Origin: Verrucomicrobiia bacterium
GTDB taxonomy: Bacteria; Verrucomicrobiota; Verrucomicrobiia; Palsa-1439
Direction of reading: 5' to 3'
Assembly: GCA_035516795.1 (NCBI GenBank)
Contig: DATIZX010000055.1
Location: 21,412 to 85,411 of the forward strand
DNA length: 64,000 bases
The notes under the pieces were generated by a model. That model had not been told where the DNA came from and made no database searches. It saw nothing but the letters and a program-made list of their open reading frames with translations. Below, one piece after another: positions 41,627-57,892 of the stretch; within the stretch, counting starts at the first letter, position 1, and each line of letters opens with the position of its first letter. Made by a program: the position numbers and the translations under genes.

Positions 41627-42028
41627 TCAGGCCGAGGAACTCCGAGCGCGGCTCAGCGTCAGTCGGCCCTGAGCCACGATTTCCCCGCCGACGCGCAAAA
41701 CGGTTTCGAATTGAGAGAGCGCCCCGAAGTCTTTCGCGAGCATCACTTCAATTTCCAGCGTCTGATCGGGCAATACCGGCTTGATGAATCGGAACTGCGT
41801 CACCGCCGCGAGAAAAGCGGCGCCCGGTTGCTGCCAAAGTACACCGGCCGCTTGCGCGGCGCATTCGATCAGCAGCACGCCCGGCATCAGGGGATTGCCG
41901 GGAAAATGGTCGGCAAAAAACGGCGCGGCCGGGTCGAGCCATTTGCGTCCGCGTCCACGTTTTCCAGCGTCAAGAACCTCGAACGCATCGATGAACGAAA
42001 ATCCGGGACCATGTGGGGTCAAGCTCAT
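41627..42028 (-). CDS. hotdog-fold 3-hydroxyacyl-ACP dehydratase (FabZ/FabA/ApeI-like)
   Basis: 133 aa. FFADHFPGNPLMPGVLLIECAAQ is the catalytic His-containing motif of FabZ-like dehydratases. Start overlaps the LolA-like stop by 4 nt. Confidence 0.7.
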   Translation of the reverse strand: MSLTPHGPGFSFIDAFEVLDAGKRGRGRKWLDPAAPFFADHFPGNPLMPGVLLIECAAQAAGVLWQQPGAAFLAAVTQFRFIKPVLPDQTLEIEVMLAKDFGALSQFETVLRVGGEIVAQGRLTLSRARSSSA

Positions 42029-42669
42029 TCTTGAGGCACCTCGAAAACTTTCTTGTCCAGCGGCTGGTTGCGGCGTACGCGATCAAAATCATAGATGATA
42101 TAGCTGTTCAGAATCAGCCCGATCCGCATCGATTGGATATCCATCGACGGCCACGTCATCACATTTTCCACCGAGCATAGCGGAAACATTTGGAGGCGGT
42201 GTTTGGGGGTCAATGTGACCGTCCTCGTGTTGTTACTGCTGCTGGTGCTCGCGTCGAACAGCCCGGCAAAATTCGTACAACCGTTTTGGAAAAAGCTCAG
42301 CAAGAACTGGACGTTCTGTGTGGGTTTCCCGTGGCGCACTTCCAACTTGTACTTGGCGAGCCGTTTCCTGTCACGCTTGATGTACAATTCGTCGCCGCGG
42401 ACCAGCACGAGTTCGGGCGCGGGATTCGTGAATACAATGGCGAGAAGATCGGGCGCCTGGTAGCAGATGTGGCCCAGGCTGACGACGTGCCGCGGTGGAA
42501 ATGTCCAATGGAACGTTTGCCGCAGATCCGCCTCGAAGGTTCGCGTCGCGACCTGATGCGCGACAAAAACGTCGGCATCGGTGTCGGCCCGGGCGAACGG
42601 TCGGTTCGCGAGCAGGATCAGGGCTGCGCCAACGGTGCGAATTGATACCATTGATCGGGATGATTGCAT
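42025..42669 (-). CDS. LolA-like outer-membrane lipoprotein carrier family protein
   Basis: 214 aa. Signal peptide followed by a LolA-like half-barrel. Gene context is typical of aryl-polyene/xanthomonadin-type clusters. Confidence 0.5.
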   Translation of the reverse strand: MQSSRSMVSIRTVGAALILLANRPFARADTDADVFVAHQVATRTFEADLRQTFHWTFPPRHVVSLGHICYQAPDLLAIVFTNPAPELVLVRGDELYIKRDRKRLAKYKLEVRHGKPTQNVQFLLSFFQNGCTNFAGLFDASTSSSNNTRTVTLTPKHRLQMFPLCSVENVMTWPSMDIQSMRIGLILNSYIIYDFDRVRRNQPLDKKVFEVPQE

Positions 42670-43508
42670 ATTGATTCTCGAAATCGGCCGGCCAGTTCGA
42701 TCGTGTGTGCGCGCACCTCGGCCTGGCGGTCAGGACCCCGCCACTTGGGCCGAAACGGCGGAAGCGCTTCCATGGCGTACTTGCCGGATGGCGTCGCCAG
42801 AATGGTGGCAGGCACGAGGGGCGCGCCTGTCAACAAGCTCAGCCAAACGGGCCCCGTAGAAAACGCCACGTTTCCATGGGGAAGCTCCAGCCAAACGGCA
42901 TCGGCGTTGCCGTGCGGGCGATCCATCAACATGGCGACGCATTTGCCCTGGGCGAGCTGATGGGCGATTTCCACAAAGCTGAACTCGTTGTCTCCGACCT
43001 CCAGCGTTTCTGCGCCCCAACGTTGACGGTAGGCGGCGCGCCACCGTCCCAGGGCCAGACTCGGCTCCGGCAACGATAACACGACCAGCGGGAGGTGAAA
43101 TTGCTCCATCAGCAAACCGCCGAGTTCAAACAACCCGGAATGAACCGTGACCAGCAACGCGCCCTTGCCGTCCGCCAATGCATTTTGCAGGTGCTCGAAA
43201 CCATGTCGCGTCTCCATCAATGCCAGCGCTTCTTCGCGGGTCCGGGCGCCGAGTTGGAAATAATCGGCCAACGTCGCCCCAAAGTTGTGAAACGTGCGCC
43301 GTACCGTTTCTTCGTGAAGGTCTGGGCCACAAACAAGCGCTAGGTTGCGGCGCAACGTCAGTTGCACGTGGGGATGGGTCCAGCGGTAAACTTCGGCCAA
43401 TCCGCGGCCCAGTCGGCGAGCGCGTCCGATTCCGAGCGCGCGCGCCAGCGCTACGCCGGCCTCAAACCAGAGAGCTCGGTAAAATGTCTGGGAATAATGC
43501 GGTTTCAA
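42618..43508 (-). CDS. lysophospholipid acyltransferase (LPLAT; LpxL/HtrB-like lipid A biosynthesis acyltransferase family)
   Basis: 296 aa with the LPLAT family fold and a conserved H(x4)D-type region near the N-terminus. 4-nt overlap with the halogenase gene. Confidence 0.7.
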   Translation of the reverse strand: MKPHYSQTFYRALWFEAGVALARALGIGRARRLGRGLAEVYRWTHPHVQLTLRRNLALVCGPDLHEETVRRTFHNFGATLADYFQLGARTREEALALMETRHGFEHLQNALADGKGALLVTVHSGLFELGGLLMEQFHLPLVVLSLPEPSLALGRWRAAYRQRWGAETLEVGDNEFSFVEIAHQLAQGKCVAMLMDRPHGNADAVWLELPHGNVAFSTGPVWLSLLTGAPLVPATILATPSGKYAMEALPPFRPKWRGPDRQAEVRAHTIELAGRFRESICNHPDQWYQFAPLAQP

Positions 43509-44761
43509 GACTCAGAGTAATCGAGCCGCGGCACGATCGGCACGCGTCGATGAATGGCACAAACGAAATGGAATAATTTGACCCGCCACCACACCTTGAA
43601 CATGCGATGAAAATTCCCGGCCAGAACCGAGTTCACGGCGGGCACCATACCCAAACCGCCCCGGGGATACATCAACACTTCAAATGCGCGATTGTCGTAA
43701 TACATTTCCACCATCTCGCGATAAACGTCCATATAGCGATGCACGTGGCGCGAATAATCTTGTTGTTCCCGGATGCTCAAAGCCCGGCCTTGCGCGTGCG
43801 CGCCGCAAATGAGCCGCGTCGCCAACTGCGCTGATTTCGTGGCGATGTGCACGCCGGACGAAAAAATCGGGTCGATGAACCCGGCCGCGTCGCCGATCAA
43901 CAGGGCGCGGTCCGTGGCCAGTTGCTCGTGATAGTAACTGTAATCGCTGGCTTTGTAGAAGGGGCTGATCTGCAGAGCCTCATTCATCCGCTGCCGCAAT
44001 TCGCGGCTAAGAGCGATCGTTTTTGCGAACCATTCTTCGACGGTGCCACCAAACCGTTTGAAATCATCGAGCGATCGCACCATGCCGACCGACATTTTTC
44101 CGTTTGTCAGGGGAATCAACCAGAACCAGCCGTCTTTGATGCGCACGATGGTGATGTGACCTTCCGCGTCGCCGGGATTTCGGTAGACGCCTTTGAAATG
44201 CGCATAGACCGCGATACGTTTCGGCAGGTTCATCGGTTTTCGGGCCACGCCCAGCGTCCGAGTAAGAAAAGCGTCGCATCCGCTGGCATCGATCAACCAC
44301 CGGCTGCGCGCCTCGCCTTCGCGGTACACTATCCGCCACTCGTCGCCATCCCGACTGACGGTTTTCGCTTCACAGCCTTCGCGCACTTCGCAACCACAAC
44401 TGGCGGCGTGGTCGAGCAAGACCTCGTCGAACCGGGCACGCTCGACCTGGAATGTCTGTCCGTAGCCGGGTACCAATCCGCGGGCGAACCAGAAACGCTG
44501 CCACCGGGACCCGTTGCCGACAAAAAACTCTGCACCGTGTTTCGGCTGGAACCCGGCCGCTTCGATCTTCGGCCACGCGCCGCTTTCTTTGAGGACATCG
44601 TTGCCAAACGGCAACAGCGACTCGCCAATGTGAAAACGTGGAAAAACTTCTTTCTCCAAAATCAACACCCGCCGACCGGCCTTGGCCAGAAACGCCCCGG
44701 CCGTGCTGCCGCCGGGCCCGCCGCCGATAACGATTGTGTCGTAAACCATCGGCGCACTCAT
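43505..44761 (-). CDS. flavin-dependent halogenase-like FAD oxidoreductase
   Basis: 418 aa. GxGxxG (VIGGGPGGS). WxWxIP motif (GWFWLIPL). FxxPxxSxG motif (FIDPIFSSG). Both of the last two are signature motifs of flavin-dependent halogenases. Confidence 0.75.
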   Translation of the reverse strand: MSAPMVYDTIVIGGGPGGSTAGAFLAKAGRRVLILEKEVFPRFHIGESLLPFGNDVLKESGAWPKIEAAGFQPKHGAEFFVGNGSRWQRFWFARGLVPGYGQTFQVERARFDEVLLDHAASCGCEVREGCEAKTVSRDGDEWRIVYREGEARSRWLIDASGCDAFLTRTLGVARKPMNLPKRIAVYAHFKGVYRNPGDAEGHITIVRIKDGWFWLIPLTNGKMSVGMVRSLDDFKRFGGTVEEWFAKTIALSRELRQRMNEALQISPFYKASDYSYYHEQLATDRALLIGDAAGFIDPIFSSGVHIATKSAQLATRLICGAHAQGRALSIREQQDYSRHVHRYMDVYREMVEMYYDNRAFEVLMYPRGGLGMVPAVNSVLAGNFHRMFKVWWRVKLFHFVCAIHRRVPIVPRLDYSES

Positions 44762-44770: not shown

Positions 44771-45043
44771 CTACTGTTTTGCGCCGGGCGGTGGCTGTTG
44801 CGCCAGCCAACGACGCAGAGTACCCAAAGATTGCATGACCTGGCGCGCGACTTCCGCGTCGTTGATCACGATACCATAATGCTTCTCAATCGCCACGGTG
44901 AGTTGGAGCGCGTCCAGTGAATCCAGTCCGACACCTTTGGGGCCGAATAATGGAGTATCCTCAAGGATCTCACCAGGTTGGACCCTGAGAATACAGTTTT
45001 CGACAACCAGTTTTTTCAATTCGTCCAGAGAAATATCAGCCAT
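44771..45043 (-). CDS. acyl carrier protein
   Basis: Listed ORF starts at 45184, but ACP homology begins at M48 (MADISLDELKK...). Phosphopantetheine-attachment motif GLDSLDALQL. Confidence 0.8.
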   Translation of the reverse strand: MADISLDELKKLVVENCILRVQPGEILEDTPLFGPKGVGLDSLDALQLTVAIEKHYGIVINDAEVARQVMQSLGTLRRWLAQQPPPGAKQ

Positions 45044-45072
45044 TTGTCGAGCCTCACGCTCCTGTATGTAAA

Positions 45073-47355
45073 TTATCCGCCAGCCAAAAGCAAAGCCGAA
45101 GATTCGCCATTGAGCCCCCACACGGGTAGCAGTATTTCGCGCCGCTGGTTGCGGGCAAGTTCGGCGGCGTGCACTGTATTCCAAGCTGCCGACGCCGTAA
45201 AGGCCTCACCGTGGTAGGGAAACGCGGCTGGTGTCCCTTTCATCATTTCCCTTTCGATTTCTCCCAACCAACTATGCTGCGCGGTGTGGCAGACCGCGAT
45301 GTCCGCAGGGAAATGTGCGAAACAATCCTGCGCCGCCTGCCGGACTTCCGCGCGGGCGCGATAAGTGAAGCCACCGGCCATTTGCGCGATGCGCACCCCT
45401 TGTTGCACATTGGATTTTTGCAGTAACAACGCGGCAGCGCCTTCGCTGGGCACAAATCCCGTTCGACCGTGCGGCGGCAGCCAGCCGCCAACCGCATAGG
45501 CATCAATCGAGATCGGGTCGAGTTCGGTCGCGCCGATCACCAGGGCGTATTCGACCAGTTGATTGGCCAACCACACCTCCGCCACCCGCAAGGCGCCCAC
45601 CCAGGCCGCATCATCGCTCACCAACGAATAACAGGGCCCACCAACGCCGAGGATAGCGGCAACGTGACTCGTCGCAGAGTTAAAAACTGTTTCTGGAAAA
45701 ACATTCGGGCTGGCGAACCGCTGGCCGTTCTTCAGAATTCCTTCAAAAAACCGACGGGTCGGCACAACCACGCCCGTGTTGAAAGCCGCAACGATTCCCA
45801 GTCGGTCAGGCCGCAGCGTCGGTTCTGCAGCCATTGCCTGTTGCGCCGCACCGAGCATGAACAACGTGATGGGGCTGGCCCGTCGCACGCGCATTTCGTT
45901 CTGAAGTTTTGCCAGCGGCTCGCGCGTCTGATCCACGCAGAACACCGTGTGCTCACCGCTGGCGACGCTAAGACCTTTCATGCGTTGCGGGGTTTCCGAA
46001 GGCAGCACCGCACCCAGGCCAACGATGGTTAGCGTTGAACGGGCCTCGTGCCTGTTTGGGGCAACCACCGACAGGCGGGAGGCGTGTCCAACGTTTTCCT
46101 CATACCGTTTGAATACCAAGGCGGCATTTGACCCGCCGAACCCCAGGTTCATGGATAAGACTGCGTTCATTTCGGGGTGGCTTTCGCCAACCGCCACCAG
46201 ATTGGTTGCGACGCGCGGCTCCGGCCGCCGCACGTTCAGATTTGGCGGCAAATGACCTGACCGCAGAGCCGCAATGACGAACAGCGCTTCAATGCTGCCC
46301 GCTGCGCCCAGCGTGTGCCCGATGGCGGCTTTGGTCGAACTGATCCGAATCGATTTTGGAATTGGCGAATCAGGCTGTGCGGAATCGCCGTTTCCAAAGA
46401 CTGTGGCGAACGCCGCACATTCACTCGCATCGTTCAGCAGCGTGCCCGTTCCATGCGCGTTCACATAACTGATTTCCGACGCATCGCATTGCGCTCTTGC
46501 GAGGGCCTCTCGCATCGCTCTCACCGCCGGCGCTCCGCATGGATCCGGCTGCGTGAGATGGTGCAAATCGGTCGTATGTCCGTAGCCGGCCAACTCGCAC
46601 AGCATGTGGGCACCTCGCGCGCGAGCATGCGATTCCGATTCGAGAACCGCAAAGGCGGCCGCCTCGCCGAGCATCAGTCCGTTGCGTCCCAAATCGAACG
46701 GGCAACAACGCTCGGGGCTCATGGTTTGTAGACAGTCGAAACCCACGTAGATCAACTCGGTCAAGGCTTCAAAGCCTCCCGCCAAGACGCAGTCATGCGC
46801 GCCGGCACGAATGAGATCGGCGCCATGACCAATCGCATTGGCGCCGCTGGCGCAGGCGTTGGCGATAATGGTGATCGGCCCGCGAAAACCGAGGTGCCGT
46901 TGGAGGTCGTGGATTTGGTGATGCGCCTGATAACGCACGATGTACGGATACAATCCGGCGTTATCCTGCTGCGCCAACATGGCTCGTAGAAACTTTTCGC
47001 CCCAGGCCATCCCGCCGCCGGTCGTGCTTACGGAAAGAGGCAGCCACGCGAACTTTGATCGTCCAGCTTCGTCCAACAATCCGGCTTGCGCCAGTGCTTC
47101 CCGCGCGGCAGGCAGAGCGAGACGCGCGGCCCGCGACAACCGGGACAGTTGTTTGGGAGTGAGATCCGGAAGTCCCGGCAGTTGTGCCGACGCGGCCCGT
47201 TTGCAGCGGCATCCGGCCACATCAAACAGGGTCACCGGCGCGGCGGCGCTTTCTCCGGCGACGATTCGTTGCCACGAGGTCTGGAAATCAAAGCCCAGCG
47301 GCGTCACCGCTCCCATTCCGGTGACAACGACGCGGGTTTGGGGATGAGCGACCAT
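45073..47355 (-). CDS. fused beta-ketoacyl synthase didomain: active KS (Cys-His-His) + KS-like/chain-length-factor-like domain
   Basis: 760 aa. Domain 1 has ANACASG (active Cys), NAHGTGT and KAAIGHTLGAAG. Domain 2 (about 420-760) is KS-fold but lacks the His-His dyad, so it is CLF-like. Confidence 0.8.
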   Translation of the reverse strand: MVAHPQTRVVVTGMGAVTPLGFDFQTSWQRIVAGESAAAPVTLFDVAGCRCKRAASAQLPGLPDLTPKQLSRLSRAARLALPAAREALAQAGLLDEAGRSKFAWLPLSVSTTGGGMAWGEKFLRAMLAQQDNAGLYPYIVRYQAHHQIHDLQRHLGFRGPITIIANACASGANAIGHGADLIRAGAHDCVLAGGFEALTELIYVGFDCLQTMSPERCCPFDLGRNGLMLGEAAAFAVLESESHARARGAHMLCELAGYGHTTDLHHLTQPDPCGAPAVRAMREALARAQCDASEISYVNAHGTGTLLNDASECAAFATVFGNGDSAQPDSPIPKSIRISSTKAAIGHTLGAAGSIEALFVIAALRSGHLPPNLNVRRPEPRVATNLVAVGESHPEMNAVLSMNLGFGGSNAALVFKRYEENVGHASRLSVVAPNRHEARSTLTIVGLGAVLPSETPQRMKGLSVASGEHTVFCVDQTREPLAKLQNEMRVRRASPITLFMLGAAQQAMAAEPTLRPDRLGIVAAFNTGVVVPTRRFFEGILKNGQRFASPNVFPETVFNSATSHVAAILGVGGPCYSLVSDDAAWVGALRVAEVWLANQLVEYALVIGATELDPISIDAYAVGGWLPPHGRTGFVPSEGAAALLLQKSNVQQGVRIAQMAGGFTYRARAEVRQAAQDCFAHFPADIAVCHTAQHSWLGEIEREMMKGTPAAFPYHGEAFTASAAWNTVHAAELARNQRREILLPVWGLNGESSALLLAGG

Positions 47356-47359
47356 CGGA

Positions 47360-48811
47360 CTACGTCAGCCGCTGAAGCGCCGGGTAATATTCCCAGAGCG
47401 GACCCACCACTCCACGGTGGCGGAGTCGGTCAGACAACGGGACAAAGGACGTTGGGGGATTGCCGATGAGCCAGTTGGGGCCTTGCTGGCGGAATTCCTC
47501 CAACTGTTGCAGCAATTCCTCTTTGGTAAGAGCCGGAGAAATGTAGTAAACGGGGCGAAGCAGATCCGCGTCGGCTGACAGCAGTCCCTCGCGCACGGCG
47601 CGCGCGAACAAGGGCGTGCCGGGGTAAATGCGCATACCCGCCAGGGCAAAAATGACCGCGCCAGGCAGCCGCTTCGAATTGGCAAATGTGGTCTGTAGCG
47701 TCTCGCGGGTTTCGCCCGGCCCGCCGCAGATCAGGAAGTGTCCGTAGTGGATGCCGGCGGCCCGCGCCAGTGTGCTGGACTTCAAAATGTCTTCAAAGGT
47801 GATCGCTTTACCGTACTCCGCCAGTACCGAATCGCAGAGGCTATCGGCACCGAATTCGATATGCGTCAGTCCGGCTCGCGCCATCAAATTCATCAGCTCG
47901 GCCGTCAACCCTTTCGGGCGGAGAAAACAGGTCCAGGTCACTTCGACACCCCGCCGCAGTATGGCTTCACAAACACGGGCGATGTGATCGTTTTGCAGGT
48001 TAAAAACCGCATCGACAATAAACACGTGTTTCGTTCCCTGGCGTTGGAGCGTCATCAGCTCAGCCGCGATCGCCTCGGGCTCCCGGCGGCGGATTCGCCG
48101 ACCTTCGATCAAGGGATAGGTGCAATAACAGCACGGCATACTACAACCCCGTTGCGTCTCGATGTTCAACATGGCGCTGTGCTGTAGATAATAGTTCATC
48201 AACTCCGGTGGCCGCTCCGCTGTGAAGGCGTAAATCGGCTCCTCGGGATCACATGGGTTGACGACGATCTGATCCCCGCGCCGGTACACCAGTCCCGGAA
48301 TGCCGCTGGAGTCGTCCCCAGTGGTGATCGCCTTGATCAACTGGACAAACGCGACTTCGCCGGGACCTTGGACACCAAAATCGGCACCGCTCAACCTCAA
48401 AAGCTTTTCGGGGAAAATAGAAAACGCAGTGCCGCCGAGGACGATCGGGGAAGGGCTGCAGCTACGCACTTTATGGCTGAGTGCGATCGCATCGTCGTAA
48501 TAGGTTTCCTGGCTCTGGAACTGCACATCATCCACGTTGCGAATGGAAATCCCAATCACGTGAGGTTGGAATTCAGCGATGGCTTGTTCGAGCGGCACGT
48601 TCATCGCCTGCCGATCCACCCAGCAGGTCGTGTGGCCAGCGTGGCGGAGCGCGGATTCCAAGTGGGCCAACCCCAGCGGGAATACAGGGTATGGCTGGTC
48701 ACAGCGGTTGCTGCTGATCAATAGAACCCGTCGCGAATCCATCGCCGCATTGTAAAAACAGAACTCCTGAAAGCAATCCGTAAATTCCCTTTTCATTCCC
48801 CTCGATGGCAA
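47360..48811 (-). CDS. B12-binding domain radical SAM enzyme
   Basis: N-terminal cobalamin-binding Rossmann-like region. CxxxCxxC (CSMPCCYC). Start probably at M24 (48742). 4-nt gap to the KS gene. Confidence 0.8.
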   Translation of the reverse strand: MPSRGMKREFTDCFQEFCFYNAAMDSRRVLLISSNRCDQPYPVFPLGLAHLESALRHAGHTTCWVDRQAMNVPLEQAIAEFQPHVIGISIRNVDDVQFQSQETYYDDAIALSHKVRSCSPSPIVLGGTAFSIFPEKLLRLSGADFGVQGPGEVAFVQLIKAITTGDDSSGIPGLVYRRGDQIVVNPCDPEEPIYAFTAERPPELMNYYLQHSAMLNIETQRGCSMPCCYCTYPLIEGRRIRRREPEAIAAELMTLQRQGTKHVFIVDAVFNLQNDHIARVCEAILRRGVEVTWTCFLRPKGLTAELMNLMARAGLTHIEFGADSLCDSVLAEYGKAITFEDILKSSTLARAAGIHYGHFLICGGPGETRETLQTTFANSKRLPGAVIFALAGMRIYPGTPLFARAVREGLLSADADLLRPVYYISPALTKEELLQQLEEFRQQGPNWLIGNPPTSFVPLSDRLRHRGVVGPLWEYYPALQRLT

Positions 48812-48919
48812 ACTGTCCGAGCGCCTGGCGCCAGTAATCTTCTTGACGGCAAGTGTGGCCCGCTGTATCTGACGCCACGCAAGTTGCGCATTTCACGGCG
48901 GGAACAAATCAATGTTTGA

Positions 48920-50254
48920 ATGCCAGTAGGAAATTGCCAAATCGTGCGGAAAAGCCGTCTCGCCCAATCATGGCACGTCCTCCTCCCAGCAAGCAATCGA
49001 TCTGGGAGATTCTTGGTGTTTCTCCCCTTGATTTTCTTGGCCCTGCTAACTGCCGCTTGCCGCACATCGGCAACCCGTCAGGTTTGGGGTGTCAATCCAG
49101 CCATCGCCCGTCTCCAAGCGGGCCACAATCTTCAATCTGAAGTCGACGCGTTGGCGCAACCGCTGTTGGACAGCGGAGAGGCCTACGGCATGGTCATCGG
49201 AGTCGTCCTGCCAGACGGAACCACCCAGACGTTCTGTTATGGCCACAATGATGGTCCCGGCGATCCCCGCCCACTGAATGCCGATTCCTTGTTCCAGATC
49301 GGCTCGGTCTCAAAGGTTTTCCTCGCGACGCTGGTCGTGCGCTTGGTGGAACAAGGTCGGTTGCGCTACGACGAGACCGTTCGCAGTATCTTGCCGACCA
49401 ACATCGTCGTCAGTGCCGACGCGGGCCGCCTGACCGTCTACGAACTGCTCACGCACACGAGCGGCCTTTCCCGTGAACTCTGGTGGCCGAACCAGGTCGG
49501 TTCTGTGATTGCCTACTTCGTGTTGGGACGAAATGTTTACGCGCACCTCACCACGCCTTTTCTCTACAATTACCTGCGGGTCTGCCATCTGCACGTACAG
49601 AAACCGCCCCAGTTCAAGTATTCAAACATTGGCTTTGGTTTGCTGGCGAACCTGGTCGCGGTGAAGACGGGTCGCCCCGCAACTGATTTGATTGAGGAGG
49701 AAATCTGCCGGCCACTCAACATGACGAATTCCGTCTTCTTCCTGGACGACAAGCAGAAACGACGCCTGGCTGTTGGCCATGTCGGCAACCAAGCGTGCTG
49801 GAGATTTCGCTCGGCGCGGATGGCTCCCTGGGACATGGGCGATTTGATGCGTCCGGTGAGCGGCATGTACTCGAGCGTCAACGACCTTTTGATTTTTGCG
49901 AAGGCCAACCTGGGAATGTTGCATCTTCCCCTGGAATCCACGCTGGCCGCCACCCATCAGGTACAGATTGAAAGCGCTCGAGGCGGCGAAGCGTTCGGCT
50001 GGATCGTAAGTCGTTTCGACGAAGGACGGCAGATCCTCACCTTCAAAGACGGCATGGTTTCGGGTTATCGAGCCTACATCGGGATGGATCTCAATGCTCG
50101 CGTCGCCGTCGTGGTGCTCAACAACCAGTTCGATTGGGACGACAAGATCGGACACAATCTGCTGCTCCGTCTTGCCGGCGCCTACGGCCGGAAAAACTCA
50201 GCACTGCAAGCCCGTTCCCATCTTTCAAACACACCATTGACTCCCTCCCGGTAA
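48920..50254 (+). CDS. beta-lactamase-fold serine hydrolase (class C/PBP-like esterase family), secreted/lipoprotein
   Basis: SxxK motif (GSVSKVF), a YxN-like region and a hydrophobic signal sequence ending LTAAC. True start probably downstream of the listed ATG. Confidence 0.7.
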   Translation: MPVGNCQIVRKSRLAQSWHVLLPASNRSGRFLVFLPLIFLALLTAACRTSATRQVWGVNPAIARLQAGHNLQSEVDALAQPLLDSGEAYGMVIGVVLPDGTTQTFCYGHNDGPGDPRPLNADSLFQIGSVSKVFLATLVVRLVEQGRLRYDETVRSILPTNIVVSADAGRLTVYELLTHTSGLSRELWWPNQVGSVIAYFVLGRNVYAHLTTPFLYNYLRVCHLHVQKPPQFKYSNIGFGLLANLVAVKTGRPATDLIEEEICRPLNMTNSVFFLDDKQKRRLAVGHVGNQACWRFRSARMAPWDMGDLMRPVSGMYSSVNDLLIFAKANLGMLHLPLESTLAATHQVQIESARGGEAFGWIVSRFDEGRQILTFKDGMVSGYRAYIGMDLNARVAVVVLNNQFDWDDKIGHNLLLRLAGAYGRKNSALQARSHLSNTPLTPSR

Positions 50255-50286
50255 AACTTTAGCCTGCACCCGAGGTTTGACCCGGC

Positions 50287-51885
50287 ATGCGAGTTCTGTT
50301 GATCGCCCCACGCTTTGCCCGCAATTTGTGGACGTACGAGCGGGCGCTCGCCCTAATTGGACGCAAATCGACTCTGCCACCCCTGGGTCTGATCACGGTC
50401 GCCGCTCTCCTGCCGCAAGATTGGGAGTTCCGCTTGGTGGACCGCAATGTGAGCGAAGTCGCCCAGGCGGATTGGGCTTGGGCGGAACTAATTCTTCTTT
50501 CCGGGATGACCACTCAACGGGAGGATTTCCTGGCGCTCGTTCGCGAAGCCAAACAGCGCGGCAAGCGCGTCGCCGTGGGCGGTCCTTATCCCACCACGCT
50601 GCCGGGTGAAGTCGCGGCTGCAGGCGCCGACTATCTCGCGCTGGGTGAAGGTGAATTGACCATCCCCGCGTTCGTCGCTGCGCTCCAGCAGGGCGAGAAG
50701 GAGGGGTGTTTCAGTCCGAATGGAGAGTTTGCTGACCTGTCGCACACCGTCGTGCCCCGGTTTGATCTACTTGATCTCCGTGCCTACGAAAGCATGTCAG
50801 TGCAGTTCTCGCGCGGCTGTCCGTTCCGTTGTGAGTTTTGCGAGATCGGAGTGCTTTTCGGTTCCCGTGCTCGGGCCAAGACTCCCGCACAGATGTTGGC
50901 TGAGTTCGACCGGCTCCGCGAACTCGGTTGGCGCCGCTCGATCTTCGTTGTGGACGACAATTTCGTCGGCAACCGCGTGAAAGTCCGCGACCTGTTGCGG
51001 GAGTTGAAGCCGTGGCAAAAGCGGCACGGCTATCCCTTCACGCTCAATACCGAGGCGTCGATGGATCTGGCTTCCGACCGGGAATTGCTCGATCTGATGG
51101 CCGACTGCAATTTCAACGGTGTGTTCCTCGGTATCGAAACGCCAGACGACGCCAGCCTCAAACGGGCCGGCAAATTGCAGAACACCCGCTTGCCGCTGGA
51201 AACGGCGGTCGAGACCATCACCCGCGCCGGGCTCTGCGTCATGGGTTCCTTTATCCTTGGCTTCGACGGCGAACAACCCGGCGCCGGCGAACGGATCTGT
51301 GAGTTTATGGAGCGGACTTCCATCCCGACGACCGTGGTTTCCATGCTCCAGGCGTTGCCGCGGACGACGCTGTGGGAGCGGCTGAAGCGCGAAGGACGGT
51401 TACGTGGTGAGGACGCACGGCTGAACCTCGAAACGTTGATGAACTTCGAGCCCACCCGGCCGATGGATGAAATTGCCCGCGAATATTCCGCGGCGCTGTG
51501 GCAGATTTACGACCCGGTCCGGTTTCTCGACCGCACCTACCATCATTTCCAAATGCTCGCTCCGCCCCGTTGGGATTTGAAGGAGCGCACGCCGGACGAA
51601 CATGGTTGGCAGGACATCCGCGCCTTGCTGACACTCTGTTGGCGACAAGGAATCAAACGGCGTAGCCGCTGGAAATTCTGGCAGTACCTGTTCAGGATTG
51701 GACGGAATAATCCGCGCGTGGTCGGCCATTACATCTGTACCCTGGCCCATCTCGAACATTTCCTCTGGATCCGCAAATCCGTTCGCCATCAGGTCGAGAC
51801 CCAATTGGGTGTTCATTCGCTGCCCCAACAAGCCGCGCCACGCAAAACGAGTCCTCGCCCCGATTCACCCGCTCCGGTGATTTGA
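50287..51885 (+). CDS. B12-binding domain radical SAM enzyme with C-terminal DUF4070-like region (HpnJ-like)
   Basis: 532 aa. N-terminal B12-binding domain and CPFRCEFC (CxxxCxxC). Paralogous architecture to 47360..48811. Confidence 0.8.
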   Translation: MRVLLIAPRFARNLWTYERALALIGRKSTLPPLGLITVAALLPQDWEFRLVDRNVSEVAQADWAWAELILLSGMTTQREDFLALVREAKQRGKRVAVGGPYPTTLPGEVAAAGADYLALGEGELTIPAFVAALQQGEKEGCFSPNGEFADLSHTVVPRFDLLDLRAYESMSVQFSRGCPFRCEFCEIGVLFGSRARAKTPAQMLAEFDRLRELGWRRSIFVVDDNFVGNRVKVRDLLRELKPWQKRHGYPFTLNTEASMDLASDRELLDLMADCNFNGVFLGIETPDDASLKRAGKLQNTRLPLETAVETITRAGLCVMGSFILGFDGEQPGAGERICEFMERTSIPTTVVSMLQALPRTTLWERLKREGRLRGEDARLNLETLMNFEPTRPMDEIAREYSAALWQIYDPVRFLDRTYHHFQMLAPPRWDLKERTPDEHGWQDIRALLTLCWRQGIKRRSRWKFWQYLFRIGRNNPRVVGHYICTLAHLEHFLWIRKSVRHQVETQLGVHSLPQQAAPRKTSPRPDSPAPVI

Positions 51886-51999
51886 ACGAAAGCTTGGCAA
51901 ACCGGAAAGGCTTTTGTTCGAAGGCAAGTATTCACTTGTTTTCGAATTTCCCACGTATAGGATTGTCTCCAACTCCTACAACCCACCGGAGGAAGAACT

Positions 52000-52497
52000 A
52001 TGAAGCGTTGGATCGTATCTGTGATTCTATGTTCGACACTGGCTGCCGTAGTCGACGCCGCCTCGACGAAGGACAAACAAAAGGCTCTCGACCGGGCAAA
52101 CTATGTTGCCTATCAGGGAGAGCAACAAGCCTGGCCGACCAGCGACCAGAATGTGCCCAACACCATCGAGACCAAGCAAGGGGTAACCATTTACCGGAGT
52201 TTGCCGAGTCGCCTCTATGAAATCCTGGGCGTCATTCAGGTCACGCACGATGACAAGGTAGCCAAACGCGTTTCGGCAGCCGCCCACGCCGCCGGCGCCA
52301 ATGCAGTTCTGGTGTGCGCAGATGACGCCTTCGTGAAAGCGGGTATTACCATTCAGCCGAGTTTGGTCATCGAAGGCAAGAAAGCCAGTGGCATAACTTC
52401 CCTCACCGGTTTTCTCATCCGCTGGAAGCTGGTTCCGAGCGGTACAAGCGCTTCGCCCACTAATGGGCCCGCTACTCCGCCTGCCCCTTCGTCGTAA
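52000..52497 (+). CDS. secreted hypothetical protein (paralog family A)
   Basis: Signal peptide plus a conserved core shared with 52540..53052. Confidence 0.5.
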   Translation: MKRWIVSVILCSTLAAVVDAASTKDKQKALDRANYVAYQGEQQAWPTSDQNVPNTIETKQGVTIYRSLPSRLYEILGVIQVTHDDKVAKRVSAAAHAAGANAVLVCADDAFVKAGITIQPSLVIEGKKASGITSLTGFLIRWKLVPSGTSASPTNGPATPPAPSS

Positions 52498-52539
52498 CCT
52501 GTCGTTTGCCGCTGCTTTGCAATCCGAAACGCTGGAATG

Positions 52540-53052
52540 TCACTTTGTCGTCCAGCGAACTAGAATGGCGCACATCCGGGTGACGCGAATGGTAGGGTGT
52601 TCGTCCTTAGTCGTCAACGCCTCCGGGTGATCGAGTCGCGAAACAGTGGTCGGGCCTCGCGGATCGGGAATTTCGGCATTCTCCATTAGCTGCGGACTAA
52701 CTTTCAGTCCGGCGTCTGCAAAGGCTTTGTCACCGACAATGAGGAGCGCATCGGCTTCGATCAAACGGGCCGCCTCGACCACGTGCTTGACGGCGTGATC
52801 GCCTTCATCGCTCATCGTCCCCAGCACCTCATAGGGACGGCTCGGCAGTTTTTCATAAATGGGCAGGCCATAGCGCGTTTTAACGAGCGCGATCGGCTCG
52901 GTGGAACGTGGCCAGTCCTTCTGCTCTCCGGCATATTGCTCGTAATGAACTTTTGACAGAACTTTGGAGGGGCTGGACGCCACCAGAAGGCGACTCGGGA
53001 AAAACGCCGTCGAAACCAGTACCAAACAGATGGGAATTCTGTTCGATTTCAT
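52540..53052 (-). CDS. secreted hypothetical protein (paralog family A), convergent to previous
   Basis: Homology to 52000..52497 begins at M46 of the listed ORF (MKSNRIPICLVLV...). Confidence 0.5.
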   Translation of the reverse strand: MKSNRIPICLVLVSTAFFPSRLLVASSPSKVLSKVHYEQYAGEQKDWPRSTEPIALVKTRYGLPIYEKLPSRPYEVLGTMSDEGDHAVKHVVEAARLIEADALLIVGDKAFADAGLKVSPQLMENAEIPDPRGPTTVSRLDHPEALTTKDEHPTIRVTRMCAILVRWTTK

Positions 53053-54073: not shown

Positions 54074-54180
54074 ATTGGGCTTTGACCTGAACAACGGTCT
54101 GTTCTGTCCGAAACCGCAAAGGCGACCAGTGAAGCGAGCGTAGTCAAACGCACCGCTCGGAACAGTTTTGCGAAGTGGTT

Positions 54181-55353
54181 TTATGTGCCGGCTTCGCTGC
54201 AGCGGTATAAGTTCCACCAGATCCGCCGTTGCGACCGGAACACGACCGGCCACGGGAGCCAGCAAGCGAGCCAGGTGAGCGCTCGCAGCCCGCTCCAGCC
54301 CGCCAACACCGGCGCGTCGCGCAGCCGCGGCGCACAGCCAACTCGGGCACATAACCGGGCCGCAACCAGCGCTTCCAACAGCACCGTCACACCCAAGCCG
54401 GTCCAGGTCCACCACGCTGTCGGTTGCCACAACACCGCTCCGAGCCAGCCGAGCACGGGTGTAATGATCAACTCCGCCGCGTAGCCTGCGGGCCGACACC
54501 ACCGCACCGTCTTGTGCCAACGCAGGTAATGCAGGACGGCATCGGTCCACCGGGTTTCCGCGGACAAGGTTTCCAGTGTCACGCTGCTGATGTGGACCGG
54601 CGCGAGCCGTCGGCCCAGGAGATTGTCCTCGGCCATGCGGGCACCTAGCTCGTCCCAGGGCAGGCGCTGTTGGAGGTCGTCGGCGTCGAACAACATCGCT
54701 GCGCCAAATGCGAAACTCGGTTTGCCCCACGCCCGACAGGCCAGCACGCCGGGATAGAATTCGGCGTTTACAAACAGTGCTTCCAACCACATCGGCCGCA
54801 GCGTCACCCGGCGGATGACGTACGGACAGGTCACCAGTCCTGAGTTGGTTGCCGACTGCTCGCCGCGCAAAGTCGTCAACAATCCGGGGACTGCAATCAT
54901 GTCCGCATCGCTCCACAACCAGAGTCGCCCCTGCGCCCGACCGGCCAAAGCATGCCACCACGAGCTTTTCGGACTACGGAAGGTGGCCGGCCGCGGCTGA
55001 CACACGACCGTAAACCGCGCCTTCGAATAGCGCCGCCGCCATGCGGCAAAAATCGGTTCCCAGGCCGCGGCGTCCTGCTGTTCCACACCGAACAACACTT
55101 CCGCGCCGTCACCGGTTTGCGCAACGAAGGACTCGAGCGCGGCAACAAGTTTGGACGAAGGCACCGGCGTGCGCAACGCGCAGAGCGGTTTGAAAACGGT
55201 GAGCGTCTGGGCTGACCCGGTCGTCGGGGTGGGGGAGGCGGCACCTTCGTTTTCGGCCGTCATGCGACAGCGAACCAATCGGAGGGCGTAAATCCACCAA
55301 CCTGCGGCCAGCGCAGTCCAGCCGACCAACAGCCACTCAAGCCGCGGCCACAT
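54181..55353 (-). CDS. membrane-associated GT2-family glycosyltransferase (ceramide glucosyltransferase/HpnI-like)
   Basis: 390 aa. N-terminal TM. DxD-like SDAD, a QxxRW-like LRWHKTVRW, and C-terminal TM helices. Confidence 0.5.
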   Translation of the reverse strand: MWPRLEWLLVGWTALAAGWWIYALRLVRCRMTAENEGAASPTPTTGSAQTLTVFKPLCALRTPVPSSKLVAALESFVAQTGDGAEVLFGVEQQDAAAWEPIFAAWRRRYSKARFTVVCQPRPATFRSPKSSWWHALAGRAQGRLWLWSDADMIAVPGLLTTLRGEQSATNSGLVTCPYVIRRVTLRPMWLEALFVNAEFYPGVLACRAWGKPSFAFGAAMLFDADDLQQRLPWDELGARMAEDNLLGRRLAPVHISSVTLETLSAETRWTDAVLHYLRWHKTVRWCRPAGYAAELIITPVLGWLGAVLWQPTAWWTWTGLGVTVLLEALVAARLCARVGCAPRLRDAPVLAGWSGLRALTWLACWLPWPVVFRSQRRIWWNLYRCSEAGT

Positions 55354-56368
55354 CTGGTTTCACACGAGATGCGACACTGGCGGTGGCTGCGTCAGAATCC
55401 AATCGAAGGCGAAACCAATCGACCGCCTCGCGCACGGTGGCTCGGGCCGGACGCTGGGGCTGCCAACCCAATTCTTCAGCCGCTTTCCGGCAGGAATAGC
55501 GTGCGCGGCGCCGCGCATGGAGCGCTGTTTCCCAACACAAACGATCGTTCCCGGCGGTTTCGCCAATGGCGCCCGCCACGGCGATGATGCCCCACGGCAG
55601 GCAAATCCGTGGCGCATCTTGTGCCGTGCACCCGGCCAGCAACTGCAACAACTCGAACAGCGTCAAATGATGATGCCCCAGCAGGTAACGTTCGCCGCGA
55701 CGACCTCGTTCCGCCACGACCAGAATGCCTTCGGCCAGTTCGCTGACATTGATCACATTCAGACTCGTGTGCGTTGCGAACGGGAAGCGTCCCCGCAAAA
55801 AATCCAAAACCATTCGACCCGTGGGAGTCGGTTCCTCATCCTCGGCGCCAAGCGGCGCCACGGGGTTGGCGATGACGACGTCCAGTCCCCGCCGAGACCA
55901 ATCCAGCGCCACGCGTTCCCCGAGCCATTTGGAACGACGATAATGTTGCCCGGCCGCGACGCGCTCGGGGAAATCCCGCTCGGTGACCAGGCCGTTGCGC
56001 GACTCCAGCACGCTGCACGAACTGACGTGTACGAACCGTTCGACCCGTTGGTCCCAGGCCGCCCGCAACATATTCTCCGTGCCCCGATGGTTGGCGGCTT
56101 CCATCGAAAGCCGGTGGCGCCGGCCAAAGCGGTACAAGCCGCCCAGATGAATCACCGTCTGCACGCCGCGAGCCGCCTGCTGACAGCAGACCGGTTCCAA
56201 CAAATCGCCCACCAGAATTTCCACGCGGTCGCCAAACAATCTCCGCGCCTTGAATTCGTTGCGGCAGAGAAGCCGGACCGTGGCGCCCCGACTGAGAAGC
56301 TTGCGGACGACGAACCGCCCAATAAACCCGGTGCCACCCGTGATGAGAGTTTGCGTCGACCCATGCAT
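55337..56368 (-). CDS. NAD-dependent epimerase/dehydratase (SDR; HpnA-like)
   Basis: Rossmann motif TGGTGFIGRFVVRKLL. Start taken at M31 of the listed ORF. Confidence 0.75.
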   Translation of the reverse strand: MHGSTQTLITGGTGFIGRFVVRKLLSRGATVRLLCRNEFKARRLFGDRVEILVGDLLEPVCCQQAARGVQTVIHLGGLYRFGRRHRLSMEAANHRGTENMLRAAWDQRVERFVHVSSCSVLESRNGLVTERDFPERVAAGQHYRRSKWLGERVALDWSRRGLDVVIANPVAPLGAEDEEPTPTGRMVLDFLRGRFPFATHTSLNVINVSELAEGILVVAERGRRGERYLLGHHHLTLFELLQLLAGCTAQDAPRICLPWGIIAVAGAIGETAGNDRLCWETALHARRRARYSCRKAAEELGWQPQRPARATVREAVDWFRLRLDSDAATASVASRVKPDVAAA

Positions 56369-56390
56369 TGGGGCAGAATCTACGATAATA

Positions 56391-57110
56391 ATGCACGACG
56401 GAAAAGTGATTTTCGTGGCTGACGATTTCGGGATGGACGCGGAGACCAATCGCGCCATTCTCCACGCTCACCATCACGGGGCGCTGCAGGGGGCCAGTTT
56501 GATGATGGGACAACAGGCGACCGACGACGCGGTGCGCCGGGCTCGTGAAAATCCCTCGCTGCAAATCGGTTGGCATCTTCATCTCTGCGATTCGCAACCC
56601 GTGACGTGCCACTCGTGGCCGTGGGGCAATGCGTACGTTCAGGCAGGCTGGAGGATTGGGCTGATGCCCGGCGCGCGTCGCTTGATGCGCCGCGAAGTCG
56701 CCGCGCAATGGGAGTTGTATCAACAAACAGGCTTGCCCTGCGCGTTCGTCAATTCCCATCACCATCTTCATGCCCATCCCATGGTCTACGCCGCGCTGCT
56801 GGAAGTCTTGCCGCGACCGTTCAACGGCTGGCTGCGTCTGGGCAGGCCCTGTTTCTTTGGGCCAACTGAGAACCAGCACCTTTATAGTTGGGCGGACGGA
56901 ATTTTCATGCGGACCCGCCGCCGCCATTGTCCCTTTCGTTGCAGTGACACAATCTGGGGACTCGGGCGGACTTATCGAATGCAGGCACAGGAAGTCATTG
57001 AGGCTGTGCAACGCTTGCCCGAGGGTTTGCATGAGTTTTATTTTCATCCGCGCTCGAAGGACGATGCCGATACACAATGTTTGCTGGAGTTAAGAAAATG
57101 CGGATTCTAA
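56391..57110 (+). CDS. YdjC/ChbG-family carbohydrate deacetylase (HpnK-like)
   Basis: Characteristic N-terminus (VIFVADDFGMDAETNRAIL...G.L.GASLM) of YdjC family. Start taken at M48 of the listed ORF. Confidence 0.65.
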   Translation: MHDGKVIFVADDFGMDAETNRAILHAHHHGALQGASLMMGQQATDDAVRRARENPSLQIGWHLHLCDSQPVTCHSWPWGNAYVQAGWRIGLMPGARRLMRREVAAQWELYQQTGLPCAFVNSHHHLHAHPMVYAALLEVLPRPFNGWLRLGRPCFFGPTENQHLYSWADGIFMRTRRRHCPFRCSDTIWGLGRTYRMQAQEVIEAVQRLPEGLHEFYFHPRSKDDADTQCLLELRKCGF

Positions 57111-57892
57111 TCGCCCTGTCATTGGCCGCGGTCCTGACCGGATGCGCGACTGTTTCGCCGACTGCCGGACCCGGGCGTCCGTTCGATTTCCGACGCGACA
57201 CATTCGCGTTCCACAATGAACTCGTATTCAAATCCTCGGATCCGTCCTCGGTTTCTGGCGTCGCCACGACGCTGCAGAAATTGGAGCATCCCTACACGCG
57301 GCGTTGTTTCATCATGGCGGCCGGCGTCGTGCAATTCTGGAAACATGCGCGCTTCGATCCGTCGGCGCCGCCCGTGGCGGAGAGCGAACTGGCTCGTCGC
57401 ATCCGCGAGGTCCGCGATGACGCGGCTTGGTGGCCCGGTGAACCGCCCACCAAACGCGTCGTGTTTCCCGGATTTGCCGGCTTGCGCGACCTCAGCCAGC
57501 GCGAGGGCCGGTTGCTGCGGGCCAACATGGGCGCGGGCTGGACCACGTATTTTCATCTGCGCAAATTCCCCATGCCGTTCGTGCCTTCGCGCACCCATCA
57601 GGCGCGCTTGTGCCAGGAAGTGCGCGCCTGGCTTCGCTCAGGCCATCCCATGGTTCTCTGGCTCTATAATTTTCCCGACGTCAACATCAACCACGCCGTG
57701 ACCGTCTTCGAGGAAATCGCGCCGCCCAATCCCGATCAGATCGCCTTTCACGTCTACGACCCGAACTACACTGATGCACCGCGCACGCTCATATTTGACC
57801 GGGCCACCAGTGCGTTTTATTACGAGAAGACTTTCTATTTCCCCGGCGGGCTCGTCCACGCTCGGCAGATGTTCACCAGCTTGCTGAGATGA
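57098..57892 (+). CDS. lipoprotein, hypothetical
   Basis: Signal peptide with lipobox LTGC. No recognisable domain. Confidence 0.45.
   Translation: MRILIALSLAAVLTGCATVSPTAGPGRPFDFRRDTFAFHNELVFKSSDPSSVSGVATTLQKLEHPYTRRCFIMAAGVVQFWKHARFDPSAPPVAESELARRIREVRDDAAWWPGEPPTKRVVFPGFAGLRDLSQREGRLLRANMGAGWTTYFHLRKFPMPFVPSRTHQARLCQEVRAWLRSGHPMVLWLYNFPDVNINHAVTVFEEIAPPNPDQIAFHVYDPNYTDAPRTLIFDRATSAFYYEKTFYFPGGLVHARQMFTSLLR

Follow-up and report, generated by a model that had tools for sequence, protein, structure and literature searches.

We investigated a window of 64,000 nucleotides from an uncultured Verrucomicrobiia bacterium (GenBank assembly GCA_035516795.1, contig DATIZX010000055.1, positions 21,412 to 85,411 of the forward strand), in which two genes for B12-binding radical S-adenosylmethionine (SAM) enzymes, rSAM-1 and rSAM-2, enclose a gene for a beta-lactamase-fold serine hydrolase. 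The three genes are the middle part of one lipid locus of about 16 kb (approximately 41627-57892). We consider it fairly probable that this locus represents a reduced form of the "ladderane-type"/aryl-polyene-like type II fatty-acid-synthase clusters, which are common among Verrucomicrobiota, with the roles for the three proteins that are proposed below. The original prediction, made from the sequence alone, had described these three open reading frames (ORFs) and a B12-binding domain in both radical SAM proteins, which is confirmed by the Pfam domains and by the motifs CSMPCCYC and CPFRCEFC. The Pfam E-values, together with exact database matches for all three proteins (P0001, P0121, P0241) in one Verrucomicrobiae metagenome-assembled genome (MAG), rule out chance ORFs. 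The true starts of rSAM-1 and of the hydrolase are probably downstream of the mechanical ORF starts; the NCBI version of rSAM-1 has 478 residues and most of its homologues start near residue 24, and the JGI version of the hydrolase has 412 residues.

The rSAM-1 protein (483 residues) contains a B12-binding domain (Pfam, 1.6e-14) and a Radical_SAM domain (1.1e-23) with the cluster motif C223-x3-C227-x2-C230 within CSMPCCYC. Classification with hidden Markov models, suggested in the original prediction as a check, assigned it to TIGR04072, "rSAM_ladder_B12", at 409.7 bits against an equivalog cut-off of 360 (E = 1.2e-122, residues 28-473 on profile positions 1-438 of 443), and the identical protein at NCBI is named "lipid biosynthesis B12-binding/radical SAM protein". 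The rSAM-1 stop codon lies 4 bp before the start of a gene for a fused ketosynthase (KS) and chain-length factor (CLF), which is followed after 29 bp by an acyl carrier protein (ACP) gene. The N-terminal half of the fusion is a FabF-like ketosynthase with the active-site Cys in ANACASG, a motif present only in that half; the C-terminal half is chain-length-factor-like, without the Cys, and is 32% identical to the separate CLF-like gene product of another locus, L003.

An alignment of rSAM-1 homologues, used as query with one genome per species, gave 80 loci with 46-68% identity. The loci were compared, with 10-kb flanks, by tblastn with the window proteins and with reference cluster proteins. 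About 45 of the 80 TIGR04072 loci carry KS/CLF clusters, and the companions of the TIGR04072 homologues in these are KS, CLF, ketoreductase (KR), ACP, an MMPL-acyltransferase fusion, an AMP ligase, GT2 and further radical SAM genes. Nearly all 80 loci are labelled Verrucomicrobiota, with a few implausible bin labels. Clusters of the verrucomicrobial type (52-54%) are labelled Bifidobacteriaceae (L027, L036, L039) or Nitrospirota (L032, L040, L044), and these loci are probably mis-binned contigs or come from mislabelled bins.

The majority of the clusters have a layout, type A, that matches L003/L004, with genes for the MMPL-acyltransferase fusion, LolA, a FabA/ApeI-like dehydratase, AMP ligase, GT2, a small radical SAM protein, the TIGR04072 enzyme, a second B12 radical SAM enzyme with a weak DUF4070 match, separate KS and CLF, KR and ACP, and sometimes a fourth radical SAM gene of the type found after rSAM-2 in L005. 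The window shares a second layout, type B, with L005, L009 and L026, in the order AMP ligase, FabZ-like dehydratase, LolA-like protein, acyltransferase, halogenase-type flavoprotein, ACP, KS-CLF fusion and TIGR04072 enzyme. L005 and L009, with rSAM-1 proteins of 67-70% identity, retain this layout.

A fusion of a B12 radical SAM domain with KS and CLF (1251 residues; L091:1913-5668, minus strand) was found in a cluster that also holds a homologue of the hydrolase and, nearby, an aromatic ammonia lyase gene (L091:1-1114). The fused radical SAM domain is nearest to the third radical SAM protein of L005 (30% identity), and as it is 27% identical to rSAM-1 over 102 residues, the fusion was rejected as proof that TIGR04072 enzymes bind KS-CLF. 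It shows that cobalamin radical SAM domains, here of a subfamily other than that of rSAM-1, can couple physically to such ketosynthases.

The nearest characterised relatives of rSAM-1 are the C-methylases BzaD (208.6 bits) and TsrM (145.7 bits; PDB 6wte, 122 bits), whose models are far under their cut-offs of 450 and 500. A TsrM-like polar methyl-transfer mechanism is unsupported, the aligned Glu (E244) varying across the rSAM-1 family. No mention of TIGR04072 was found in the literature searched, and for the B12 radical SAM enzyme in the anammox cluster a role in ring formation has so far been no more than a proposal (PMC10139942, PMC13459092). One stand-alone rSAM-1 orthologue (68%) adjoins DUF364, CbiQ and ABC ATPase genes (L001:11909-14880), which could specify a transporter of the ECF type, for cobalt or cobalamin-related, next to an enzyme that depends on cobalamin.

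The hydrolase gene (444 residues) is divergent from rSAM-1 and lies on the same strand as rSAM-2, 32 bp upstream of it, so that the divergent arrangement described earlier holds towards rSAM-1 and not towards rSAM-2. The family is narrow, with 305 matches. In its alignment S129-x-x-K132 (GSVSK), Y234-S-N236 and K376-x-G378 are invariant, and the hydrophobic N-terminus ends in a nearly invariant Cys47 in a lipobox-like context, with a PROSITE-style lipobox and signal peptide in 70 of the 79 full-length homologues. As judged from these motifs, the protein is indeed a secreted SxxK serine hydrolase. Since the lipobox is conserved, it is predicted to be a periplasm-facing lipoprotein and would therefore not act directly on a cytoplasmic ACP thioester. 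It does not reach the cut-offs for AmpH (115 bits versus 266), its best NCBIfam match, or for class C beta-lactamases (100.2 versus 415). The closest structures are the esterase/peptidase IS11 (7spn), Pab87 (2qmi), AmpC, EstB (1ci8) and ClbP (3o3v; 43 bits).

Homologues of the hydrolase with 42-63% identity lie in comparable lipid clusters in five of six contexts (L022, L090, L091, L092 and L096). That of L022 (51%) is inside a type-A cluster. Those of L090, L091 and L092 (58-63%) are each divergent from a LolA gene, and the neighbours include a flavodoxin/SCP2 protein, an MMPL-methyltransferase fusion, GT2-DUF2062 and AMP ligases, as well as a halogenase-type flavoprotein (L090, L091), DUF8321/8322 (L090, L092) and a radical SAM gene (L092). 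In a compact acidobacterial cluster of a Holophaga MAG (L096:2951-10057), a 42% homologue stands between genes for a KAS III-like enzyme, an ACP and a carbonic anhydrase on one side and a GT2-LipA-acyltransferase fusion, an AMP ligase and another ACP on the other; this cluster lacks radical SAM genes, so that members of the hydrolase family can occur with acyl-lipid clusters that have none. The 10-kb flanks undercount this association, because a distance of about 11 kb separates hydrolase and rSAM-1 in L038/L090.

The two radical SAM proteins are 22% identical over 322 residues (BLASTP, E = 1e-9). By sequence they are superfamily relatives and not recent paralogues, and the description of them as paralogous holds at the superfamily level only. 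Orthologues of rSAM-2 (67-90% identity) stand divergently beside rSAM-1 in L005, L009, L011, L012 and L013/L094. In L005 and L009 the hydrolase gene lies between the divergent radical SAM genes, and in L011, L012 (where rSAM-2 is truncated) and L013/L094 a gap of 60-145 bp without hydrolase separates them. The pair thus occurs in four genomic contexts (window type, L013/L094, L011 and L012) with wholly different flanks: in L011 it is alone among unrelated genes, and in L013 it is accompanied by KS-CLF only. Because the pair is retained through rearranged flanks, we argue for a functional link between rSAM-1 and rSAM-2. The tie of rSAM-2 to the cluster, unproven and resting on this retention, is somewhat more probable than its absence. 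In L005 an additional B12 radical SAM gene of 440 codons follows rSAM-2 directly (L005:11576-12898), at the place of a 114-bp gap in the window (51886-51999); the same subfamily is found at the end of some type-A clusters (L027, L042, L070; 57-63% identity). The association of the three genes with KS/ACP genes that had been predicted is therefore supported for rSAM-1 and for the hydrolase, and is plausible for rSAM-2, by the synteny in L005 and L009, the pair in L011-L013 and the hydrolase loci.

Several observations weigh against our reading of the locus. The window locus has no AMP ligase, ketoreductase, MMPL exporter or starter-unit enzyme, and its pathway could lack steps or be split. In L001/L010 and L014-L017, close orthologues of rSAM-1 (59-68% identity) are single genes unaccompanied by KS, and the sixth hydrolase context, L095, holds a 47% homologue outside any lipid cluster. 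The rSAM-1/rSAM-2 pair is confined to rather close relatives, in which rSAM-1 is at least 63% identical, and descent therefore contributes to it; six other loci at a like distance have no rSAM-2. The cyanobacterial orthologues of rSAM-2 (56-61%) stand alone with no lipid genes nearby (L006, L093), and their ancestral substrate is for this reason independent of the cluster. The literature searched contained no characterised member of TIGR04072, of the clade of rSAM-2 or of the hydrolase family, and the chemistry is assigned by analogy. The original prediction had named as telling against it close homologues with experimentally assigned, unrelated functions in organisms without the adjoining KS/ACP genes; the cyanobacterial homologues of rSAM-2 lack these neighbours, and none has an experimentally assigned function.

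Several of these observations would also be expected if only rSAM-1 belonged to the lipid pathway, with rSAM-2 and possibly the hydrolase being unrelated neighbours (the one with a cyanobacterial-type task, the other an AmpH-like cell-wall enzyme) whose adjacency was inherited within one verrucomicrobial family. The core locus of L026, complete without rSAM-2 and hydrolase, and AmpH as the best NCBIfam match of the hydrolase agree with this explanation. However, the radical SAM pair outlives a complete change of flanks (L011, L013 and the window), genes of the locus lie on both sides of rSAM-2 and hydrolase in the window and in L009, the hydrolase homologues recur in differently laid-out lipid clusters, even in another phylum (L022, L090-L092, L096), and the AmpH model is far under its cut-off. 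We, therefore, regard the explanation by unrelated neighbours as unlikely, although it deserves to be kept in mind.

The structural relatives of the hydrolase raise another explanation, namely a ClbP-like maturation peptidase that cuts an N-acyl or lipid "pro" group in the periplasm, the product of the locus then being a secreted bioactive compound. ClbP, from colibactin biosynthesis, is a cluster-encoded, membrane-anchored periplasmic S12 enzyme, and the AMP-ligase and ACP genes near the hydrolase homologues would suit such a pathway. On the other hand, none of the loci has nonribosomal peptide synthetase or other peptide-forming genes, the three C-terminal transmembrane helices of ClbP are absent, the Pfam domain of the hydrolase reaching almost to the C-terminus, and the LolA, MMPL and LpxL-type neighbours indicate envelope-lipid trafficking. 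A ClbP-like role is thus very unlikely.

The rSAM-2 protein (532 residues, motif CPFRCEFC) consists of a B12-binding (1.6e-15), a Radical_SAM (4.1e-18) and a DUF4070 domain (7.3e-44), and it matched no NCBIfam model at its cut-off. Its C-terminus had been called HpnJ/DUF4070-like: the DUF4070 part is correct, while the HpnJ model TIGR03471 gave 61.8 bits against a cut-off of 577.6. Neither GrsA nor Tes was among the NCBIfam matches, and no GrsA/Tes reference sequence or model was compared. In a metagenome scan with rSAM-2 as single query, one locus, L009, was among the matches listed. The best homologues outside Verrucomicrobia are cyanobacterial, with 56-61% identity. These matches, together with the nearby HpnA- and HpnI-like genes, raised the suspicion that rSAM-2 is the hopanoid C-2 methylase HpnP. 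The HpnP clade is monophyletic and surrounded by uncharacterised "HpnP-like" clades, and the genomes of many cyanobacteria encode both kinds (Hoshino et al. 2023, PMC10697835).

We compared rSAM-2 by BLASTP with sequences from the supplementary alignments of PMC10697835. Its identity to the HpnP proteins of R. palustris (B3QHD1), N. punctiforme (ACC80996), Cyanothece 7425 (ACL44263) and Gloeobacter (BAC90255) is 33-37%, whereas these four are 57-60% identical among themselves. It is 53% identical to the outgroup HpnP-like protein of Gloeobacter, BAC92182, and 58-61% identical to the HpnP-like proteins of Geitlerinema PCC 7407 and Cyanothece 7425. In a neighbour-joining tree, the verrucomicrobial rSAM-2 proteins are sister to the cyanobacterial HpnP-like clade, apart from HpnP. 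Additionally, Geitlerinema PCC 7407, which carries an rSAM-2 orthologue (P0175), is listed with neither squalene-hopene cyclase nor HpnP (PMC10697835). The identities, the tree and this occurrence identify rSAM-2 as an HpnP-like class-B radical SAM enzyme that is not HpnP and is very probably no hopanoid enzyme. Alphaproteobacterial plasmid homologues (Komagataeibacter, Bradyrhizobium) were discarded as HpnP references, as they belong to another HpnP-like outgroup (55-57% identity to GEO99407 of Methylobacterium haplocladii) and have uninformative contexts. The orthologue of rSAM-2 in Synechocystis 6803 (BAL32516) was sought among slr0905, sll1242 and slr0309, and the papers do not allow an assignment.

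A wider form of the hopanoid explanation takes the right half of the locus as a hopanoid side-chain or methylation locus, in which rSAM-2 acts as an HpnP- or HpnJ-type modifier with the HpnI-like (126.9 bits) and HpnA-like (259.9 bits) genes, close by (2.3 kb downstream) and syntenic. The domain architecture of rSAM-2 is that of HpnP (PMC10697835), as this explanation would require. It is nevertheless highly improbable, since it conflicts not only with the identities, the clustering with the outgroup clade, the HpnJ score and the Geitlerinema orthologue, but also with the HpnI and HpnA matches being under their cut-offs, with the lack of squalene-hopene cyclase and HpnH in the 64-kb window, and with L026, where the HpnI/HpnA-like genes flank a KS cluster that has no rSAM-2. 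Hopanoid-style names for the genes at 54181-57892 would be misleading, the HpnI- and HpnA-like genes scoring under the hopanoid cut-offs and travelling with the lipid cluster.

Table 1. Genes of the lipid locus, with their positions in the 64,000-nucleotide window
Feature	Position	Strand	Evidence
FabZ/ApeI-like 3-hydroxyacyl-ACP dehydratase, left end of locus	41627..42028	-	Pfam FabA 3.1e-16; ApeI-like 29.1 bits (cut-off 28.5)
LolA-like periplasmic lipid/lipoprotein carrier	42025..42669	-	LolA2_flexi 45.7 bits (cut-off 125); Pfam LolA 16 bits, E = 0.009
LpxL/HtrB-type (Lip_A_acyltrans) acyltransferase	42618..43508	-	PF03279 2.4e-27; syntenic in L005, L009, L026
Flavin-dependent halogenase-type flavoprotein	43505..44761	-	PF04820 Trp_halogenase 1.3e-25; CmlS model 189.8 bits, under cut-off 900
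Acyl carrier protein, about 90 residues, internal Met start in ORF 44771..45184	44771..45043	-	GLDSLD phosphopantetheine-attachment motif
KS-CLF fusion, 760 residues	45073..47355	-	ketoacyl-synt + Ketoacyl-synt_C, residues 7-375; FabF model 346.9 bits (under cut-off 493.75)
rSAM-1, TIGR04072-family B12-binding radical SAM enzyme	47360..48811	-	TIGR04072 409.7 bits (cut-off 360)
Beta-lactamase-fold (S12/family VIII) serine hydrolase with lipoprotein signal	48920..50254	+	PF00144 7.4e-51
rSAM-2, HpnP-like B12-binding radical SAM enzyme with DUF4070	50287..51885	+	Pfam domain triple
p165, conserved hypothetical secreted protein	52000-52497	+	no Pfam/NCBIfam family matched
p215, conserved hypothetical secreted protein	52540-53187	-	no Pfam/NCBIfam family matched
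p285, conserved hypothetical secreted protein	53216-54073	+	no Pfam/NCBIfam family matched; counterpart in L009
GT21/GT2-family glycosyltransferase, HpnI-like	54181..55353	-	TIGR03472 126.9 bits (under cut-off 310); Glyco_transf_21 2e-20
NAD-dependent epimerase/reductase (short-chain dehydrogenase/reductase), HpnA-like	55337..56458	-	TIGR03466 259.9 bits (under cut-off 367.65)
p271, putative lipoprotein, probable right end of locus	57077..57892	+	DUF8321/DUF8322-related; weak lipoprotein attachment-site match

The genes of the locus are listed in Table 1. The minus-strand genes 3' of the ACP gene are tightly spaced or overlapping. The dehydratase scored 76.8 bits with the NCBIfam FabZ model, under the cut-off of 113, and has syntenic counterparts with 76-85% identity in L005, L009 and L026, in which the synteny of the LolA-like gene is kept as well. 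The flavoprotein, whose type was assigned from sequence, carries GGGPGG, WFWLIP (WxWxIP) and FIDPIFSSG in its translation. The ACP matches the NCBIfam phosphopantetheine-binding protein model with 48.6 bits (E = 6e-13), under the cut-off of 70, and is 86-88% identical to its counterparts in L005 and L009. On the right side, p165 and p215 are small, apparently secreted proteins of two convergent genes; they are 38% identical to each other and keep their arrangement in L005 and L009. The HpnI-like gene is syntenic in L009 (79%) and directly flanks rSAM-1 in L026 (52%); the HpnA-like gene is syntenic in both (75% and 55%, respectively). The p271 protein is 58-70% identical to the products of syntenic genes in L009 and L026, and 33-34% identical over about 250 residues to those of L090 and L092 genes bearing PF26995/PF26997. 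The order of the HpnI-like, HpnA-like and p271 genes is the same in the window and in L009, and in L026, which has neither hydrolase nor rSAM-2, these genes abut rSAM-1 directly. As the flanking genes are joined to rSAM-1 there, the segment that starts with the hydrolase and ends with p285 (48920-54073) has been inserted into the locus as an accessory block.

To the left of the locus, an ABC sugar-transporter operon (ATPase, substrate-binding protein and two permeases, 37230-41366) occupies the place of the AMP ligase in L005, L009 and L026, and the left side of the cluster appears to be rearranged or truncated in this genome. In this region, the N-terminal extension of the mechanical ORF 38048-39673 is implausibly long and overlaps the gene of the binding protein. 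When 47000-54200 was scanned for promoters and terminators, no signal around the three genes rose above the shuffled controls. Outside the locus, the window holds unrelated housekeeping genes. It also includes a run of trehalose/alpha-glucan genes at 21056-35939 (a TreS-maltokinase-like fusion, a branching enzyme, and isoamylase-like, alpha-amylase-family and GH15/trehalase-like proteins) and two adjoining genes for large YfhO-like membrane proteins (797 and 819 residues) beside an LptF/LptG permease gene (6264-11129).

From these gene families and their order we infer the following pathway, including its substrates and the place of rSAM-2 in it. In the cytoplasm, the KS-CLF fusion, the ACP and the FabZ-like dehydratase would build an acyl or polyenoyl chain on the ACP. 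The rSAM-1 enzyme, transcribed with the KS-CLF and ACP genes, would then alter this chain on the ACP, using cobalamin-dependent radical chemistry. By analogy with its nearest characterised relatives, the C-methylases BzaD and TsrM, C-methylation is the most probable reaction, and formation of a ring or a C-C bond is possible. The halogenase-type flavoprotein may halogenate the chain, the LpxL-type acyltransferase and the glycosyltransferase would attach it to an envelope lipid anchor, and the LolA-like carrier would take the product across the periplasm. There the hydrolase would act as a lipoprotein hydrolase or transacylase that trims, releases or re-esterifies the exported, not the ACP-bound, product. 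The rSAM-2 protein would be an accessory class-B enzyme, gained beside rSAM-1 in this lineage, that most likely methylates a hydrophobic substrate of the pathway; its nearest characterised relative is the C-methylase HpnP. In its most specific form, the proposal is that the pair of rSAM-1 and the HpnP-like rSAM-2 installs methyl branches or carbocycles on a possibly halogenated, ACP- or anchor-bound chain, and that the periplasmic transacylase finishes the lipid after export; we offer this form tentatively, as possible if on balance improbable.

The hydrolase had been predicted instead to off-load or transfer the ACP-bound product as a LovD-type acyltransferase or esterase, and while the fold class, the complete SxxK/Tyr/Lys catalytic set, the lack of a thioesterase gene in the window and the position next to the KS/ACP operon fit an unloading of the finished chain, this is extremely improbable, since the conserved lipobox and signal peptide and the divergent pairing with a periplasmic LolA-like gene in other genomes point outside the cytoplasm, in which the ACP resides, LovD is not in the best 60 PDB matches, and an acyltransferase able to take acyl-ACP is already encoded at 42618-43508.

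The locus, read as a reduced ladderane-type/aryl-polyene-like cluster, was compared with the known systems. The first description of ladderane-type clusters and of the TIGR04072 family came from Kuenenia stuttgartiensis and Desulfotalea psychrophila (Rattray 2009, PMC2649909). In many phyla without anammox bacteria, Verrucomicrobiota among them, antiSMASH detects such clusters, and no product has been assigned to these (PMC9902471). The window shares with them a TIGR04072 enzyme together with a FabF-like KS, an ACP and a FabZ-like dehydratase, and differs in the fusion of KS and CLF and in the insertion of the HpnP-like rSAM-2 and the beta-lactamase-fold lipoprotein. The strict anammox cluster, exclusive to ladderane producers, comprises a phytoene-dehydrogenase-like gene, amxACP, amxFabZ, two FabF homologues and a B12 radical SAM enzyme (PMC10139942). 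In contrast, the window has no phytoene-desaturase-like gene, its flavoprotein matching Trp_halogenase and FAD_binding_3. As the host is, moreover, no anammox bacterium, the locus is not the anammox ladderane cluster and ladderane production is not expected.

In aryl polyene (APE) biosynthesis, the chain made by KS/CLF is moved by acyltransferases and a glycosyltransferase to a lipid anchor, and then by an RND transporter and LolA/LolB-like proteins to the outer membrane (PMC8253772; bioRxiv 2020.12.19.423268); the precedents are the acyltransferases ApeD/ApeJ, the LolA-like ApeL, the RND transporter ApeM and the lipoprotein ApeA (PMC8253772). The window has the core of the APE clusters (E. 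coli ApeA-R; flexirubin, xanthomonadin), i.e. KS/CLF, a dedicated ACP and an ApeI-like dehydratase, and also a lipid-A-type acyltransferase, a glycosyltransferase, a LolA-like carrier and a lipoprotein, the LolA-like and ApeI-like matches being weak. Its relatives add an acyl-ACP synthetase, an MMPL/RND exporter, methyltransferases and the aromatic ammonia lyase of L091. The APE clusters, on the other hand, have no radical SAM enzymes and no beta-lactamase-fold protein, and the window lacks the ApeH-type ligase, the ketoreductase ApeQ, the RND exporter ApeM, the thioesterase ApeK and the methyltransferase ApeB, although an AMP ligase is present in L005, L009 and L026 and MMPL and KR in the type-A relatives. 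The presence of radical SAM genes and the absence of several APE genes mean that the locus is not a canonical APE cluster.

The single proteins can be set against known ones in the same way. The rSAM-1 protein has the N-terminal B12 domain and the CxxxCxxC core of BzaD and TsrM, in a context of acyl-ACP chemistry and not of benzimidazole or tryptophan. The rSAM-2 protein has the three-domain architecture of HpnP and falls within or sister to the cyanobacterial HpnP-like clade, which occurs in organisms without hopanoid synthesis; its gene is paired with a TIGR04072 gene, unlike in cyanobacteria. The hydrolase has the fold and the SxxK, YxN and KxG motifs of the family VIII/S12 enzymes (IS11, Pab87, AmpC, EstB, ClbP, AmpH) and, like ClbP, is cluster-encoded and predicted to act outside the cytoplasm. 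It differs from them in being under every named NCBIfam cut-off, in its predicted lipoprotein anchor and in belonging to a narrow family that accompanies LolA/MMPL/acyltransferase clusters. The cluster type is already known, as an orphan, from genome mining, and the window locus is a variant within the ladderane-type/APE-like family.

Three observations made here were not found in the literature searched, namely a beta-lactamase-fold lipoprotein family travelling with these clusters, the pairing of the HpnP-like clade with TIGR04072 in one verrucomicrobial lineage, and B12-radical-SAM-KS-CLF fusion proteins. In annotation, proteins of the rSAM-2 type must not be called hopanoid methylases or HpnJ. 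Radical SAM chemistry on fatty-acyl lipids is almost unexplored, and the window locus or, better, its more complete relatives L009, L005 and L026 offer a compact gene set for heterologous expression of an orphan cluster type. If the proposal of paired radical SAM enzymes is true, Verrucomicrobia would make an unseen class of radical-SAM-tailored envelope lipids. The locus would then give a first functional context to the widespread HpnP-like clade, a complication in annotating genes for 2-methylhopanoids, and it would allow the B12 radical SAM step that is invoked for ladderanes to be studied in a tractable model outside the anammox bacteria.

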